Source of the DNA: a virus
Lineage: Duplodnaviria; Heunggongvirae; Uroviricota; Caudoviricetes
Direction: 5' to 3' (one strand)
IMG/VR virus record: IMGVR_UViG_2713897073_000008
DNA: 15,944 bases
Shown one piece after another: positions 1-11,544 of this stretch. A program made the position numbers and the translations under genes. How positions within the stretch are numbered: position 1 is the first letter of the stretch; the number at the start of each line of letters is the position of its first letter. The notes beneath the pieces are model-generated. The model was not told the origin of the DNA. It saw nothing but the letters and a program-made list of their open reading frames with translations, and searched no databases.

Positions 1-267
1 TTACTCTGCAGGTGAAGTCGGCCACTCAATATCAGGTGCGGTTGATGTATCAACACGGTTCAGCAACACCCGATACTTCTTCCAGGCTTCCAGCAACGAG
101 TTTTCTTCCTCCGTTGCGATCTCCAGATCTACAGCATCCTGAAGTGGCGCAATATGCTCACTGAATTCCTGGATGTAGAACTGTGTGGTGACGGTCTTCC
201 AGCCATTCGGCTCCTGCTGTATCGAAGCATACCAGGCTATTTCAATATCGCTATGCTGCGGCAGCAT
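1..267 (-). CDS. tfa: Tail fiber assembly protein (Tfa), short 88 aa form retaining the conserved C-terminal domain
   Basis: C-terminal ~45 aa ([48 protein letters not shown]) match the conserved C-terminus of lambda-type Tfa as I recall it. The protein is about half the usual Tfa length, so the N-terminal part is replaced or truncated. TAA stop at 1-3. Confidence 0.65.
20..71. repeat. 52-bp conserved core of the tfa 3' end, direct-repeat copy 1 (2 mismatches to 1069..1120)
   Basis: ggccactcaatatcaggtgcGgttgatgtaTcaacacggttcagcaacaccc here versus the same string with A and C at the two capitalised positions at 1069-1120. Flanking sequence is related but more diverged. Confidence 0.8.
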
Positions 268-4069: not shown

Positions 4070-4144
<75 letters not shown>

Positions 4145-4147
4145 ATA

Positions 4148-4223
<76 letters not shown>

Positions 4224-4225
4224 AC

Positions 4226-4302
4226 TGGACCGCCACCGGGGACTCGAACCTCGCACACTCAACTTAAAGAGTTGACGCTCTTTCCTGATGAGCTAGTGGC
4301 GG
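4226..4302 (-). tRNA. Atypical tRNA-like gene; canonical fold gives anticodon UUU (Lys) with non-canonical C33 (a register shift would give UCU, Arg)
   Basis: Reverse complement CCGCCAC-UA-GCUC-AUCAGGAAA-GAGC-G-UCAAC-UCUUUAA-GUUGA-GUGUG-CGAGG-UUCGAGU-CCCCG-GUGGCGG-U-CCA: 7-bp acceptor stem (C1-G72), 4-bp D-stem with GG in D-loop, 5-bp anticodon stem, T-stem with one A/C mismatch, CCA encoded. Only 2 nt and 1 nt from the neighbouring tRNAs. Confidence 0.55.
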
Positions 4303-4303
4303 T

Positions 4304-4379
4304 TGGTGGCCCTTGCTGGATTTGAACCAGCGACCTGGCGATTATGAGTCGCTCGCTCTCACCACTGAGCTAAAGGGCC
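4304..4379 (-). tRNA. tRNA with anticodon CAU, most like tRNA-Ile2 (lysidine-modified, AUA-decoding; ileX/ileZ type) rather than elongator Met
   Basis: Reverse complement GGCCCUUUAGCUCAGUGGUGAGAGCGAGCGACUCAUAAUCGCCAGGUCGCUGGUUCAAAUCCAGCAAGGGCCACCA; very similar to E. coli ileX as I recall it. Anticodon loop CUCAUAA. Confidence 0.8.
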
Positions 4380-6896: not shown

Positions 6897-7946
6897 TTAC
6901 CCAAGCACGCCAGTTGCAAAGGCGTGATCAAGAAAACGAAAAATTAAATCAACCTGAGAACCATGCTTTTCTTCGAACGCCAGCGGATCCGCATGAAGCT
7001 CGTTGTGATGCTCCCGACACAGCGGTAGCGTGAAAATATCGTGAGATTTTGTCCCCATTCCGCCCTGACCATGACCAATCAGGTGATGGGGATCGTCGGC
7101 TGGCTTACCACAACACGCACACGGCTGTGTCTTCACCCAGCGAGTGTATTTCTCGTTAACCCAGCGGCGACGTTTAGGTCGTTTCATGAAAGATTCCGGA
7201 GACTCAGGATCAACGGCAATGCTGACCACCGTCTTTTCCTGTGGTGGGTTCTGTTGCTGGTGGGCGTGAGGCAGCGGCGCAAGATTTTTTGTGCGCTGTT
7301 TCAGTATGCTGGTGGCGGTCTGCTCTCCCGGTACGATGTCGCTTTCACGGTACATGGAGCGGATTTTTTCCACACGCAACCCCAGCGAACGACGTAATAC
7401 CGCTTCCGGTAGCGCGTCCGCCACCTGATTGCGGACCGCCCACCAGGATAATTCAGCCAGAGATAATTCACGCTCCTGCGTACCGCTTATTGCGTGACCG
7501 ATGACGTCAATCATCCATGCTGACAGGTTTTGATGAGCAAGTTGCTCGAGTGATTCGGATGTCTGGTCACGCAGCTGGTTGTCGCAGTGCCAGCACAACA
7601 CCATTGCGCCGGTACCATAACGGTGAATGACGGTTTCGCTGTGATGATAATCGCCGTGTGGCCACTGGCAGGATTTAATATGGCGCAACAGCCAGTCAGA
7701 CAATGCACCAGCACCACCAGCAGCACGAATCACCCGCTCATCGCTGAAAAATGGCAGTAATGATTTATCCTCCGCCAGCGGCTGGCGAACGGCAGGAACG
7801 ACCCCGGACGGCAGACCGCGCATGCTTTTTGGCTCCGGTTCAACCAGCACTCTGCCGTTATGGAATACCTGCATGGATTCACGACCTGGCTTAACGATAA
7901 CCACCCCAAGTTCCGGCACCAGAACAGGTCGAAGTAATACCCGCAC
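6897..7946 (-). CDS. Phage nin-region protein, DUF968/YdfU-like with C-terminal Cys/His-rich HNH-like motif (349 aa)
   Basis: C-terminus CACCGKPADDPHHLIGHGQGGMGTKSHDIFTLPLCREHHNELH (CxxC...HH...H...C..HH..H). Size and position upstream of rusA fit the DUF968 proteins of lambdoid prophages. Confidence 0.65.
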   Translation of the reverse strand: MRVLLRPVLVPELGVVIVKPGRESMQVFHNGRVLVEPEPKSMRGLPSGVVPAVRQPLAEDKSLLPFFSDERVIRAAGGAGALSDWLLRHIKSCQWPHGDYHHSETVIHRYGTGAMVLCWHCDNQLRDQTSESLEQLAHQNLSAWMIDVIGHAISGTQERELSLAELSWWAVRNQVADALPEAVLRRSLGLRVEKIRSMYRESDIVPGEQTATSILKQRTKNLAPLPHAHQQQNPPQEKTVVSIAVDPESPESFMKRPKRRRWVNEKYTRWVKTQPCACCGKPADDPHHLIGHGQGGMGTKSHDIFTLPLCREHHNELHADPLAFEEKHGSQVDLIFRFLDHAFATGVLG

Positions 7947-7947
7947 G

Positions 7948-8220
7948 TTACCTCCAGATGCGTTGCTGGAATGTGCGGGACGGACGCGGTGGGCGTTCGG
8001 AATAAGGGAGCCTGACAGAAATTATCCAGTGTCGGAAGTCAGGGCCGAGGTCTTTCTGAAAGTCGTACCCACGCCTGCGGTAGTTCTGAATCAGCCATTC
8101 GGCCTGTTCTTCAGTGCATGGGGCATGCTGGTACCAGTCATATTTGAATGTATGAGAACGCCGCCCGTGCCAGCTGGCAAGGTCGGTATCAGAATTGTGA
8201 TGTTTGGTATTGTGCGCCAT
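7948..8220 (-). CDS. Hypothetical phage protein (90 aa), nin region
   Basis: ORF whose stop overlaps the DUF968 start (ATGA). No motif recognised; start codon choice uncertain (weak SD). Confidence 0.45.
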   Translation of the reverse strand: MAHNTKHHNSDTDLASWHGRRSHTFKYDWYQHAPCTEEQAEWLIQNYRRRGYDFQKDLGPDFRHWIISVRLPYSERPPRPSRTFQQRIWR

Positions 8221-8295
8221 CGGTTTTCTCTGCTGGCGCAGCAGGTGCCAGTTGTTCAGGCTGGCCTGTAGATTGTAAACCAGAATACGTAAAAC

Positions 8296-8317
8296 AAAAA
8301 ACCCGCCGAAGCGGGTT
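8296..8317 (-). terminator. Intrinsic terminator (minus-strand sense) downstream of the HTH-peptidase gene; identical 22-mer to 10131..10152
   Basis: AAAAAACCCGCCGAAGCGGGTT on plus; on the minus strand CCCGC-UUCG-GCGGG followed by UUUUUUGUUUU. Confidence 0.5.
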
Positions 8318-8321
8318 ATGC

Positions 8322-9443
8322 CTAGTGAATTTTGCCTCTAAGAGTTCGGTAAGATTGTAGTGAAACAACATCACCACTTCCTGGCAGTTCATGAACCGCA
8401 GGAAGATCATCTCCTACTAACTCATAAAAAATGTCCACTTCTATATCCATTTCATCAGCTATACGCTGTGGGTCGTATCCTAACTCTTCAAATAAAAACG
8501 ATAAAGCCCGACGGAATAACTCAGGACGCTCATGAGGGATTAGATAATCTTCTTTTTCATCAATAGCTTCCCCTTTCCGTTTCAACCCCATAAATGCAGT
8601 TCTGTACTGCTCATCAGTCAAAAGTCCTAATTGATGAGCCCTGTAAACAATGGCAGCCTTACTTACTTTCCATGTCAACTTAAATTGGCTTAGTCCCTGC
8701 CAATTTATCCTCCCCCCCACAGGTCTTGGAAAATATTTCGCCATCGACGTTCTGGGAAGCAACAGAGCAGAGGCAAAACGGTTTGCCTGGGATTCAGTTA
8801 ATCTATCCCCAGTAGAAATTCCTTCATGAAGAATCAAATGGGCAACCTCATGAGCAATATCAAAGCGTTGCCTACAAGGTGAATTTTTAGCTGTATTTCG
8901 AACAATAAAAGGCCTTCGTAGAGGAACAGACAGTGCATCTACTTCATCCGAAACGGAGTCAAATGAAGTAACAAACGCCCCAAGTTTCTCGGCAAGGCGA
9001 GTCATATTTTCAATTGGGCCAAAGCCTAAGCCCCACTCAATACGACATTTTTCTGCCGCTCGCTCGATATCTTCTTGTGTATGGACACGAAATTCAGGAA
9101 ATCGAACAGGTGACAAATTAAGGTTATCTTCAAATACATCAATAAAACGACGATAAAACTCAGCCTTAGCGAGTGTTGATAGCTTCGTTGACATCCTTGT
9201 CGAGGCGCGTTTACGAAAATGTACAATCTCTTCATTAACAGGAGAATGTTCCTGCCCTTCGAAAAAGGCGGGCTTCACGCGCAAAACCTCGGCTAATTTA
9301 TTTATAAGCTCTGGGGATGGAGTAGCTGAACCAGACTCCAGTCGCTGTACATACTGGCGTGTTTTTTCAACCTTCTCAGCAACCTGCTCCAGAGATAGCT
9401 CGTGATACAGACGAGCAAGTCTTAAATTAGTACCGTTAAACAC
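8322..9443 (-). CDS. XRE-family HTH fused to ImmA/IrrE-type (HExxH) zinc metallopeptidase domain, 373 aa; RosmerTA RmrA-like candidate
   Basis: N-terminal HTH (LSLEQVAEKVEKTRQYVQRLESG) and central HEVAH zinc-binding motif in the context typical of the ImmA/IrrE (M78/DUF955) family. GTG start with GGGTGA upstream, 10 nt after the upstream gene stop. Confidence 0.75.
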   Translation of the reverse strand: MFNGTNLRLARLYHELSLEQVAEKVEKTRQYVQRLESGSATPSPELINKLAEVLRVKPAFFEGQEHSPVNEEIVHFRKRASTRMSTKLSTLAKAEFYRRFIDVFEDNLNLSPVRFPEFRVHTQEDIERAAEKCRIEWGLGFGPIENMTRLAEKLGAFVTSFDSVSDEVDALSVPLRRPFIVRNTAKNSPCRQRFDIAHEVAHLILHEGISTGDRLTESQANRFASALLLPRTSMAKYFPRPVGGRINWQGLSQFKLTWKVSKAAIVYRAHQLGLLTDEQYRTAFMGLKRKGEAIDEKEDYLIPHERPELFRRALSFLFEELGYDPQRIADEMDIEVDIFYELVGDDLPAVHELPGSGDVVSLQSYRTLRGKIH

Positions 9444-9453
9444 ATTTCACCCA

Positions 9454-10047
9454 CTATTTGCTATTTTGTTTCTTTTCCTTCTCAGTCTTAGACGCACTGA
9501 TAGGTTCTAGTTCGATAGGTACCGGTGCTGGAGGTACATCATCGACAGAGTTCAGCATAACAACACGGTCCGCACCATATGTCCAAGTTGACACGATCTC
9601 ACCAAACACGTTATAGCCATTAAAAATGACTCTACCACCCTCGCCTTCAAATTCAGGCTTTTCAACCACAAAGCGATGCATAGTTGGAGTAGTCTCCTCT
9701 GACTCAAAGAGTCGATCAGCATCATTTCTTTTGAAAAAACCGCGTTTCTTGGGGTTATCTGCGTCATCAGTAAAGAAACGAATAGGGACATTCCCAATTG
9801 AAAACGTAAGATCCATGCCAGGATTAAGTAGTCTTAACCAGTCATATGTCTTTCGTACGCACATTTGTAGCAACGCCTGCCGCTGACGCCCAAATGTACA
9901 ACCACCACGAGTGTAATTATCATCATAGGGCGATGACAATAACTCATGAGTAATATCCTGTATCCTGAGCAACTCCTCAGCTATAATGGTTAAACGCACC
10001 TCTGTTAACTCAGGAAAGAACTCCCAAGGGAATGGATGGTTCTGCAT
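9454..10047 (-). CDS. Hypothetical protein (197 aa from ATG 10047; ORF table extends to TTG 10095), upstream partner of the HTH-peptidase; candidate toxin/effector
   Basis: GGAG SD 9 nt upstream of ATG 10047. No TM segment and no recognisable motif. Visibly AT-rich, co-oriented and tightly linked with 8322..9443. Confidence 0.55.
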   Translation of the reverse strand: MQNHPFPWEFFPELTEVRLTIIAEELLRIQDITHELLSSPYDDNYTRGGCTFGRQRQALLQMCVRKTYDWLRLLNPGMDLTFSIGNVPIRFFTDDADNPKKRGFFKRNDADRLFESEETTPTMHRFVVEKPEFEGEGGRVIFNGYNVFGEIVSTWTYGADRVVMLNSVDDVPPAPVPIELEPISASKTEKEKKQNSK

Positions 10048-10082
10048 AGACACTTCTCCGCCTAATCCGTGCAAAAAACGAC

Positions 10083-10128
10083 TTTTGTCAACCAAGATAT
10101 TGGTGCATATTCATAATTTTGTCAACCA
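10083..10128 (-). promoter_or_regulatory. Two direct repeats of TGGTTGACAAAA (each containing a consensus -35 TTGACA) immediately upstream of the 197 aa gene; candidate promoter/operator
   Basis: Minus-strand TGGTTGACAAAA at 10128-10117 and 10094-10083, 34 bp apart, between the upstream terminator and the start codon. Confidence 0.3.
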
Positions 10129-10130
10129 AT

Positions 10131-10152
10131 AAAAAACCCGCCGAAGCGGGTT
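10131..10152 (-). terminator. Intrinsic terminator (minus-strand sense) upstream of the two-gene module; identical 22-mer to 8296..8317
   Basis: AAAAAACCCGCCGAAGCGGGTT; on the minus strand the hairpin is followed by UUUUUUAUU. Would insulate the module from transcription coming from the ParA-like gene. Confidence 0.5.
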
Positions 10153-10497
10153 AAGTGCGGGTGCGTTGAGGATGCCTGACACATCAGAGGTGGCGAGGGA
10201 TTTCTCCCTCGCCTGGTCTCTTACTCCTCAGGTTCGTAAGCTGTGAAGACAGCGACCTCCGTCTGGCCGGTTCGGATTCGTACCTCGCAGAGGTCTTTCC
10301 TCGTTATCAGTACCGCAACAATTTCGTATTCATGATTCATTTCATCTAAAACAGTTCATAAACCTAAATAAATTCAAAAAATCACAACACAAATAAATAT
10401 AAATTATCTCATCCTGAAGAACGATAGGATTATTTAGAATTAATAACAATTAATGTAACAATAATTATCAATCCAGATTATTCAAATAAAATGTCAT

Positions 10498-11544
10498 TTA
10501 CCATATGGAGTTGTGAATGAACTTTAATTCATTTTTTATTTTGTTAACAGATAAATTCACGGATGTCCTAACTCTATTCACAGTCATTGCATCTCCTGGA
10601 TTTAACAACTCTAATGGTTTAGACTTAGCACTTGACATTCTGCCACTACCCAGAAAATCATCAAGAATCACAATGTGATTATTAGGATCATCTGTTGTAA
10701 AATTACTAATATTTTGTCGAATTACCTCTCTTACAGCTTCGATGTACATTTTTGTCTGTTGATTTGGTTTATTCCTTGCTCCTGCCACTGTTGACCATCC
10801 GCAATGGGTAATAACCACCATCTGAATTTTTGGTGTATGGCCATCAGACGGCATTATCTTTCTAAATTCTGATGTTGGTTTAGTCAGAGTATCAATAAGT
10901 AATCTTAATGAATTAATCGATTGCTGATCTGTCCTCACTGGAACTATTAAAGCATCTGTTGCATGCCAAGATAAATGCGTCGCTCCAGAGAAAAAAGGTG
11001 ATGTATCAATTAACGCTTTTGTAGTACCAGTTTCAACCATTTCTCTGGCTATTTCTTTCTTCAGAGAAAAAAGAATTGTATCAATAACAACCTGCTGAGT
11101 AGCCCCAGAAATTGTTCTGGCTTGAGCCAGAGCATTCGCCATTTGCGTAGGTAGAAGATAAAGTTGACTATCAGATTGAATAAAATAGTTATTCTTGCCC
11201 GCAAACCAAGCATTAGTTGATGATACTAGCTTTGCAGCACGCGTTGCAAATCCAAGCCCTGGAACAAAATAAGGCATTAAGAGGTCATTTGCAGTTGTGC
11301 TAGACGAAGATGCATAATTATTGTCAAAAAAATATGATAAATTTCCTTGCGGGCACGTATCCACGATTAATGCGTTATCCGCCAAATATGACAGATTAAA
11401 AGTTAAAGATGTCTTACCAATGCCTCCCCGTAAATTACATACTGTATATTTATCATATTTCGGCAAATTAAGACTTCTTACATTACCGTCAGCAACTTCG
11501 AATTGACGCTCTATCAGAGCATTAACATTTGATTCACTAGTCAT
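10498..11544 (-). CDS. ParA/MinD-superfamily P-loop ATPase-like protein with degenerate signature residues (348 aa)
   Basis: Deviant Walker A-like NLRGGIGKTS (R in place of the signature K of KGGxGKT) followed about 20 aa later by ALIVDTCPQGN (ParA/Soj motif LLIDxDPQGN with D to C), and a later ALIDTSP hydrophobic-D motif. Very AT-rich gene with AT-rich flanks. Confidence 0.6.
   Translation of the reverse strand: MTSESNVNALIERQFEVADGNVRSLNLPKYDKYTVCNLRGGIGKTSLTFNLSYLADNALIVDTCPQGNLSYFFDNNYASSSSTTANDLLMPYFVPGLGFATRAAKLVSSTNAWFAGKNNYFIQSDSQLYLLPTQMANALAQARTISGATQQVVIDTILFSLKKEIAREMVETGTTKALIDTSPFFSGATHLSWHATDALIVPVRTDQQSINSLRLLIDTLTKPTSEFRKIMPSDGHTPKIQMVVITHCGWSTVAGARNKPNQQTKMYIEAVREVIRQNISNFTTDDPNNHIVILDDFLGSGRMSSAKSKPLELLNPGDAMTVNRVRTSVNLSVNKIKNELKFIHNSIW

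Follow-up and report, generated by a model that had tools for sequence, protein, structure and literature searches.

The subject of this analysis is a 15,944-nucleotide (nt) stretch of viral DNA (Caudoviricetes; IMG/VR record IMGVR_UViG_2713897073_000008), referred to below as the window, in which a two-gene RosmerTA cassette lies between two directly repeated copies of a predicted terminator hairpin, next to the remnant of a hok gene. Comparison with related prophages suggests that a cassette was inserted at the hok terminator with the hairpins as its joints, by short-homology recombination within the hairpin itself, an explanation that we hold with moderate confidence. A first-pass annotation of the window had proposed that the exact repeats at the module boundaries reflect modular exchange by recombination at conserved terminators. 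This proposal is supported by the comparison, in which empty sites carry a single hairpin and all of the crossover points fall inside it. The features of the locus are the following.

6897–7946, minus strand: ydfU (DUF968), left-hand anchor gene
7948–8220, minus strand: open reading frame ORF90, assigned to no family, left-hand anchor gene
8221–8295: resident left context, intergenic and upstream of ORF90, which adjoins the single hairpin in empty-site prophages
8296–8318: left copy of the repeat, predicted minus-strand terminator ending the rmrTA operon (stem-loop 8317–8300, U-run 8299–8294)
8322–9443, minus strand: rmrA, RosmerTA antitoxin-type, 373 amino acids (aa), with an XRE helix-turn-helix (HTH) domain and an M78/ImmA-IrrE peptidase domain
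9454–10047, minus strand: rmrT, RosmerTA toxin-type, 197 aa from the ATG at 10047, with the same coding sequence in RefSeq
10048–10130, minus strand: putative promoter/operator region of the cassette, the 83 nt that separate the right hairpin from the rmrT start
10131–10153: right copy of the repeat, predicted resident terminator of hok (hokD/relF-type; stem-loop 10152–10135, U-run 10134–10129)
10154–10322, minus strand: conserved hok 3' block, the right-hand anchor, common to thousands of Escherichia coli prophages
10221–10340, minus strand: hok remnant, 39 aa, 5'-truncated, a pseudogene in RefSeq

Empty and loaded sites in related prophages

A survey was made of 130 loci with the hok flank, 111 of them anchored on ORF90/ydfU. 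At the empty sites, represented by phage Evi (locus L002) and by L007, L303 and L305, the left context is followed by one hairpin, TTAAG(T/C)GCGGG and hok. Fifty of the 111 anchored loci are empty, with a spacing of 93–94 bp and one hairpin, and about 45 hold only a proximal gene, for example rem, again with one hairpin, on the hok side. A second hairpin copy stands at the far end of the cassette at every locus with a spacing of at least 690 bp (19/19, counting both the window and L005, which are one and the same locus), and the same bracketing pattern is seen at several unanchored loci.

Two of the empty sites can be matched to the window directly. L303 and L305 carry its own rare left haplotype, GAATACGTAAAACAAAAAA (...CCAGAATACGTAAAACAAAAAA-hairpin), and in the 48 nt next to the hairpin their left flank is identical to that of the window, with one mismatch in the 56 nt compared. 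Each thus represents the locus of the window in its unloaded state. The possibility that the window-specific left haplotype ACGTAAAAC was brought in by the cassette was rejected, as it is present at these two empty sites.

Examination of related prophages for other cargo between the hairpins revealed seven cassette types in addition to the single-hairpin empty sites. All seven are bracketed by the hairpin, the left copy being intact and set in the resident context and the right copy, either intact or recognizably decayed, being set in the hok context. They are distributed as follows.

RosmerTA-1: the window and 22 of 5,426 complete E. coli genomes
RosmerTA-2: L020 and L127
RosmerTA-3: phage Tritos and L196
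Doc/Fic toxin with a small partner (toxin–antitoxin, TA): L124, L114, L299 and L302; 125 genomes
ImmA/IrrE with an HTH protein: L006; 48 genomes
ImmA/IrrE with an HTH protein, second allele: L304
130-aa lipoprotein: L008, L009 and L143

The cassettes are 0.6–1.85 kb in length and carry one or two genes each, and no DNA similarity was found between cassette types. The 22 genomes with RosmerTA-1 match positions 7900–10400 over at least 80% of the length, and all 22 have the same left junction. In the 5,426 complete E. coli genomes, hok or a hok remnant adjoins every copy of the cassettes of the window and of L006 and of the Doc cassette. RosmerTA-1 and RosmerTA-2 (L020/L127) share no blastn similarity (E ≤ 1e-5), yet they have the same hairpin-to-hairpin period, 1835 bp.

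The direct repeat and its hairpin

The whole window was searched for exact matches and for matches with up to three mismatches, and 200 dinucleotide-preserving shuffles were searched for comparison. The 22-mer AAAAAACCCGCCGAAGCGGGTT occurs twice in the same orientation on the plus strand, at 8296–8317 and 10131–10152, and there are no further sites in the window with three or fewer mismatches; none of the 200 shuffles contained two matches. The identity extends one base beyond the 22-mer to give a 23-bp repeat, AAAAAACCCGCCGAAGCGGGTTA (8296–8318 and 10131–10153), with a period of 1835 bp. The left copy stops 3 nt short of the rmrA stop codon at 8322 and the right copy is located 83 nt upstream of the rmrT ATG at 10047. 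The exact direct repeat described in the first-pass annotation as precisely flanking the two-gene module is thus confirmed, with an identity of 23 bp rather than 22 bp.

The repeat contains a perfect 14-bp palindrome (5+4+5). Read on the minus strand, each copy is AACCCGCUUCGGCGGGUU followed by U6, with a 7-bp stem, five G–C pairs and a UUCG loop. A consensus scan called both copies as minus-strand terminators (AACCCGCTTCGGCGGGTT then TTTTTT), and the RNA folds of both copies are dominated by the hairpin, which is present in the minimum-free-energy and centroid folds. Only two T residues follow the stem on the plus strand, and termination is therefore predicted for the minus strand only. By these sequence criteria both copies are predicted to be intrinsic (Rho-independent) terminators, as had been claimed from the first reading of the sequence. 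No Rfam family covers the hairpin or the hok remnant; the Rfam matches in the window are to tRNAs and IS009 only.

The gene order on the minus strand is ParA-like gene, truncated hok, right hairpin, rmrT, rmrA, left hairpin, ORF90, ydfU, rusA, Q and the lysis genes. As hok directly precedes the right hairpin, the right copy is taken to be the resident hok terminator. The hairpin and the flank TTAAGTGCGGG are found 3' of hok in all of the related loci, and the outer flank of the left copy (8221–8295) matches the empty-site prophages. Transcription that comes in from the ParA/hok side is predicted to stop at the right hairpin, such that the cassette would be fired from a promoter of its own in the lysogen, and cassette transcription is predicted to end at the left hairpin, before ORF90, ydfU, rusA and Q. 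On this prediction the cassette would be insulated on both sides, as proposed in the first-pass annotation.

Position of the crossovers

At every loaded locus the resident A-run/U-run and the left context go with the left copy, and the hok flank goes with the right copy, after which comes a U-run that is specific to the cassette. A loaded site equals an unloaded site plus the cassette and one hairpin, and this is also true where rem or another proximal gene was already resident (L127, L124). Where both copies are intact, the exact identity between left and right is 16–23 bp.

The Doc cassette allows the joints to be placed most closely. A constant sequence, TTTTCATTRGAAGCA, lies just inside its left hairpin and is joined to five unrelated left contexts: two of the ydfU type with different proximal genes, one of the empty type, a RelE/HTH context in O104:H4 HUSEC2011 and a DUF1367/1364/1133 nin region in O121. 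The U-run is specific to the context in each of the five. With a constant cassette edge and U-runs that belong to the contexts, the joints must lie in the hairpin or no more than 2 nt away. Two copies at loaded sites and one at empty sites, with hybrid flanks, is the arrangement predicted for recombination within a repeat. The two repeats are not equivalent as boundaries of the cassette: the right copy is the resident one at hok, and one hairpin is gained with each insertion.

Several loci carry altered hairpins on the hok side. The hok-proximal hairpin is damaged in three cassette lineages (L008/L009/L143, at about 2076 in L008; L300, at about 2330; and L304, at about 4390), by a 7-nt deletion of AAAACCC in the L008 type and by several point changes in L300 and L304. 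The distal copy is intact in all three lineages (L008, L300 and L304 types). Damaged hok-side hairpins may allow read-through from hok into cargo with a weak promoter. In the variant hok terminators of L153, L184, L211 and L190, 22–30 extra nt are present inside the loop, for example CCCGCCGAA-ACGCTGAGAGATCACAGCGATG-GGCGGG, giving a longer composite hairpin. These loop-extended terminators could represent an alternative allele or the footprint of an event at the loop.

Alternative explanations

The first-pass annotation had recognized that its reading would fail if the hairpin were a ubiquitous terminator with no association with cargo boundaries. The hairpin core is indeed widespread: the 18-mer core has at least 120 matches in IMG/VR, and about 95 of the matches listed lie in unrelated, often environmental, phage contexts. 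At the hok locus it is nevertheless tied to cargo boundaries. In 1.15 Mb of DNA around 128 surveyed hok loci (the window and L005 being left out), the exact 14-mer core does not occur outside the ORF90–hok interval, compared with 130 occurrences inside it, and the second copy is therefore not a chance generic terminator. Nor is the left copy simply the cassette's own terminator, since the U-run of the left hairpin is resident and not cassette-borne. A coincidence of generic terminators, in which cassettes end with a common UUCG-tetraloop terminator that happens to match that of hok and has no role in mobility, would account for the wide occurrence of the 18-mer core and for the Yersinia and Klebsiella oxytoca relatives of RosmerTA that end with CCCGCTTCGGCGGG or a version with one mismatch. 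It is very improbable given the absence of the core from the flanks of the same prophages, the resident U-run of the left hairpin in every case and the recurrence of the pattern in all seven of the seven cassette types, and on the flank count we reject it for the hok locus.

A history of deletion only would start from an ancestral array of hairpin-separated cassettes, with the present loci as hairpin-to-hairpin deletion derivatives and with nothing ever inserted. Direct repeats readily promote deletion, flank haplotypes are common to empty and loaded sites, and an Enterobacter relative has a third near-identical hairpin 130 bp past the cassette, as if a neighbouring cassette had been lost. However, two hairpin-bounded cassettes in series (three hairpins) were found at none of about 130 loci, the seven cassettes imply a never-seen ancestral array of at least 9 kb, and the presence of one Doc cassette at five unrelated left contexts, including non-ydfU nin regions, needs joining events. 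A deletion-only history is consequently less likely, and we give it little credence. We also consider it unlikely that insertion was site-specific or structure-specific, with a trans-acting enzyme cutting the extruded hairpin or cruciform and with subsequent fill-in, to leave a target-site duplication of 16–28 bp for which homology would be irrelevant. The candidates would be an integrase, an HUH or DEDD-type transposase, or a junction-resolving or HNH nuclease such as RusA or YdfU/DUF968. Consistent with such an enzyme, the whole palindrome is always part of the duplication, which has a target-specific extension in some cassettes (L006, L008); RusA and the DUF968 protein, which has a weak HNH-like match, are encoded 1–2 kb away; and the 22–30 extra loop nt of the variant hok terminators are possible footprints. 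On the other hand, none of the cassettes carries a recombinase or transposase gene, the cassette ends have no common inverted repeats or motifs beyond the hairpin and A-run, and typical recombinase core sites are longer than a 5+4+5 palindrome. We know of no system that makes target duplications of such variable length, which also counts against an enzyme of this kind. A transposon or insertion sequence with target-site duplication was rejected, as the cassettes encode only defence/TA proteins and share no end motif and the duplication varies from 16 to about 28 bp. An integron gene cassette was likewise rejected: integrons combine IntI with attI, have attC sites of about 57–141 bp and carry mostly promoterless cassettes in one orientation, whereas here there is no adjoining integrase, the palindrome is 14 bp and the cassettes have their own putative promoters.

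Proposed mechanism of insertion

For recombination within the hairpin we infer the following scheme, including its direction, its enzymes and a possible circular intermediate. The resident site would consist of ORF90, the A-run with the hairpin, and hok, with a single terminator, and the RosmerTA cassette would consist of a U-run, its own promoter/operator, rmrT and rmrA. Entry and exit would both take place by recombination within the hairpin of about 16–23 bp, with one hairpin added per insertion. After insertion, the left copy would be found with the resident U-run and context, and the right copy with the hok flank followed by the U-run of the cassette. The recombination would most likely be homology-guided, via RecA or phage Rad52-type annealing proteins. 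It could follow either of two routes: Campbell-style integration of a cassette circle bearing one hairpin, or unequal or double crossover between two prophages with cassettes bounded by the same hairpin. Recombination between the direct repeats could also remove the cassette precisely and restore the empty site. These events are expected to be rare and to become visible through selection on the defence cargo.

Several observations weigh against this scheme. The repeats of 16–23 bp are at or below the minimal pairing length of Red-beta, the minimal efficient pairing segment being 23–27 bp for Red-beta and 31–34 bp for RecA (PMC3945230), and the events would therefore be rare. The annotation of the prophage includes an 823-aa `exonuclease' and no annotated annealing protein. 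For most cassettes no donor was found outside the hok locus, and no tandem cassettes were found. The expected circle junction of RosmerTA-1 is ...CAACCAATAAAAAA-CCCGCCGAAGCGGG-TTATGCCTAG..., and exact-pattern scans of IMG/VR, the assembled contigs of which are a poor source for circles, gave no matches to this junction or to that predicted for Doc. The duplications in L006 and L008 reach into target-specific A-run sequence (ACAA and GGAAAAAAC, respectively), with a length of 23 bp including ACAA in L006 and of about 28 bp in L008 before its later 7-nt deletion, and this would fit a staggered-cut duplication equally well. In Tritos/L196 the loop of the left copy is the variant CGAG, so that one side retains only about 8 nt of identity. 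Finally, no upstream hairpin was found in RosmerTA relatives with 67–77% RmrA aa identity, in which the terminators varied.

A more far-reaching version of hairpin-mediated insertion, which we regard as doubtful, is that the hok terminator hairpin of Qin/Rac-type prophages is a dedicated capture site without an integrase. Defence/TA cassettes would circulate as hairpin-bearing circles or linear fragments and be captured and released across genera (E. coli, Enterobacter), perhaps with help from RusA, a YdfU/HNH-like protein and an Orf/Rap analogue acting on the extruded palindrome. If true, such a capture site would be a minimal counterpart of an integron for the swapping of anti-phage genes.

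The RosmerTA cassette and its relatives

The operon had been described as RosmerTA-like in the first-pass annotation, and PADLOC calls it as a full RosmerTA system with adjacent RmrT and RmrA. The product of rmrA matches the PADLOC RmrA profile with E = 4e-201 (profile positions 1–368 of 370) and contains Pfam HTH_3 and Peptidase_M78, and that of rmrT matches the RmrT profile over its full length with E = 5e-92 (profile positions 1–197 of 198). The anti-phage role of rmrTA is putative, by homology only. The region upstream of rmrT contains two 25-nt direct repeats on the minus strand, GGTTGACAAAA-N9-TGCAC, at 10103–10127 and 10069–10093, with a spacing of 34 bp; the first begins straight after the U-run of the right hairpin. 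The repeats are kept upstream of rmrT in Pectobacterium, Klebsiella, Enterobacter, Providencia, Photorhabdus and Yersinia, and they probably form an operator for the RmrA HTH domain that overlaps the promoter. Lying between genes that are adjacent in relatives, with a predicted terminator and a putative promoter/operator region, the cassette fits the definition of a moron.

The closest relative outside E. coli, in Enterobacter sp. CGMCC 5087 (L297; 92% RmrA identity), carries both hairpins. Its contig starts inside the hairpin, the 5' junction is the same as in the window (GCGGGTTTTTTTATTGGTTGACAAAA), and at the 3' end the same hairpin is joined to a different nin-type context. In a relative with 88% RmrA identity (L298) a similar 3' hairpin is present, and upstream there is at most a degenerate remnant. 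The hairpin-bounded unit of the close RosmerTA-1 lineage therefore appears to occur in more than one prophage background. The operator repeats are also present in the relatives with 67–77% RmrA identity (Pectobacterium, Klebsiella, Enterobacter, Yersinia, Photorhabdus and others), two of which, those in Yersinia and K. oxytoca, have the same 14-nt core, or a version with one mismatch, at their end. Boundaries owned by the cassette were rejected for the RosmerTA family as a whole, as the distant relatives have no upstream hairpin. The suggestion in the first-pass annotation that the cassette has portable boundary elements is only partly supported: it agrees with the two hairpins of the 92% Enterobacter relative but not with the 67–77% relatives, or with the right copy, which is the resident hok terminator.

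In L297 (1825–1975), a second hairpin that differs by one loop base, AACCCGCTACGGCGGGTTT, follows about 130 bp past the RosmerTA terminator, and a third related hairpin lies at about 3644, which suggests that this nin region holds a series of similar terminators. In about 40 unrelated, mostly environmental IMG/VR loci (for example L043, L071 and L024), the other strand reads, after the 18-mer, TTTTATTGCC or TTTTTATGCC, then a GGAG-type ribosome-binding site and an ATG, which places the identical terminator directly upstream of the start of the next gene in otherwise unrelated contexts.

Prophage setting

The window is 100% identical to E. coli 99-3165 (NZ_CP029981), in which it makes up the nin region of a Qin-like lambdoid prophage. 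Only the two flanks of the cassette have homology to other phages and E. coli prophages. On the hok side, homology to other prophages ends near 10322, inside hok, and is followed by a different module containing the ParA-like gene (10498–11544). The Pfam HOK_GEF match of the hok remnant covers profile positions 14–42 of 42 only. The hok 3' fragment of about 190 bp and the hairpin form a conserved island between two variable regions, and this island may serve as a recombination anchor on the ParA-like side as well.

On the other side, YdfU has a weak match to the putative HNH nuclease family HNHc_6 (E = 1e-4, below the cutoff). As ydfU adjoins rusA, recombination-related nucleases are encoded 1–2 kb from the cassette site, the nuclease match of YdfU being weak. 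The nearest int gene is the prophage's own, about 9 kb beyond the window, and no integrase adjoins the cassette site. Four tRNA genes (4073–4379, minus strand; Ile, Lys, Thr and Gly in RefSeq) lie downstream of Q and before the lysis genes, and the Rfam match to IS009 is near the left end of the window (41–244, minus strand).

Relation to known systems and implications

RosmerTA, intrinsic terminators, morons and exchange at boundary sequences are all known, and a close mechanistic precedent exists in the promoter-early stem-loop (PeSL) cassettes of T4-type phages (Arbiol et al., 2010, PMC2839356; follow-up, PMC4122927). Recombination between copies of the PeSL motif has been proposed and mini-circles have been physically detected (PMC2839356). 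As at the hok site, a terminator stem-loop stands beside a promoter at the cassette borders, with two copies at loaded and one at empty positions, the positions are harmless and intergenic, the cassettes have their own transcription signals, and exchange would occur between copies, possibly through mini-circles. The two systems differ in that the PeSL is a composite of about 100 bp (sigma-70 promoter plus stem-loop) present in about 50 copies per lytic T4-like genome, in hyperplastic regions, whereas at the hok site only the 16–23-bp terminator is common, promoters are cassette-specific and there is essentially one site per prophage. In addition, the host phage here is temperate and lambdoid, the cargo is of the defence/TA kind, and mini-circles have been demonstrated for PeSLs only. 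The hok site thus resembles PeSLs in having one motif at both borders and a single copy of it in the empty relative, and it lacks the composite repeated motif.

The cassettes also resemble the morons of lambdoid phages. Modular exchange at boundary sequences is said to go back to the modular theory of Susskind and Botstein, and to have been taken up for lambdoid phages and their morons by Juhala and coworkers in 2000 and by Clark and coworkers in 2001. Like a moron, each cassette is an additional unit of transcription, with a predicted promoter and terminator of its own, that separates genes lying side by side in relatives, and short border sequences are the proposed crossovers. Classic morons are generally without flanking direct repeats, whereas the border at the hok site is known to the nucleotide, is duplicated and is common to seven families with matched empty sites.

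A similar organization is found in the defence hotspots of P2-like prophages and P4-like satellites (Rousset et al., 2022, PMC9122126; NAR 2026, PMC13586616), where rapidly swapped anti-phage systems occupy a fixed position between conserved phage genes. These belong to another phage family and locus, and it is at the hok site that the joints are visible, as hairpin duplications. The P2/P4 studies leave the mechanism of swapping open, and homologous recombination would need homologous flanking genes; in the 2026 survey transposons are nearly absent at the hotspots, and terminators and hairpins are unmentioned (PMC13586616). Plausible enzymology for hairpin exchange comes from De Paepe et al. 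(2014, PMC3945230), in which Rad52-like phage recombinases let lambdoid phages recombine with defective prophages, Qin and Rac among them, where the homologies are short or diverged. In that work the homologies are hundreds of base pairs with short perfect segments, whereas at the hok site they total about 16–23 bp. No earlier description of the hok/nin hotspot, or of terminator-mediated swapping in lambdoid prophages, was found in the literature searched.

The rapid swapping of defence systems at prophage hotspots is still regarded as unexplained. The hok locus offers joints at nucleotide resolution, a 16–23-bp hairpin duplicated per insertion, matched empty sites and seven cargo families, and with these boundary-sequence exchange becomes a directly testable model of defence-cassette turnover in E. 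coli. It also provides a search rule for new accessory and defence genes in lambdoid prophages, namely to look between repeated copies of the hok terminator.

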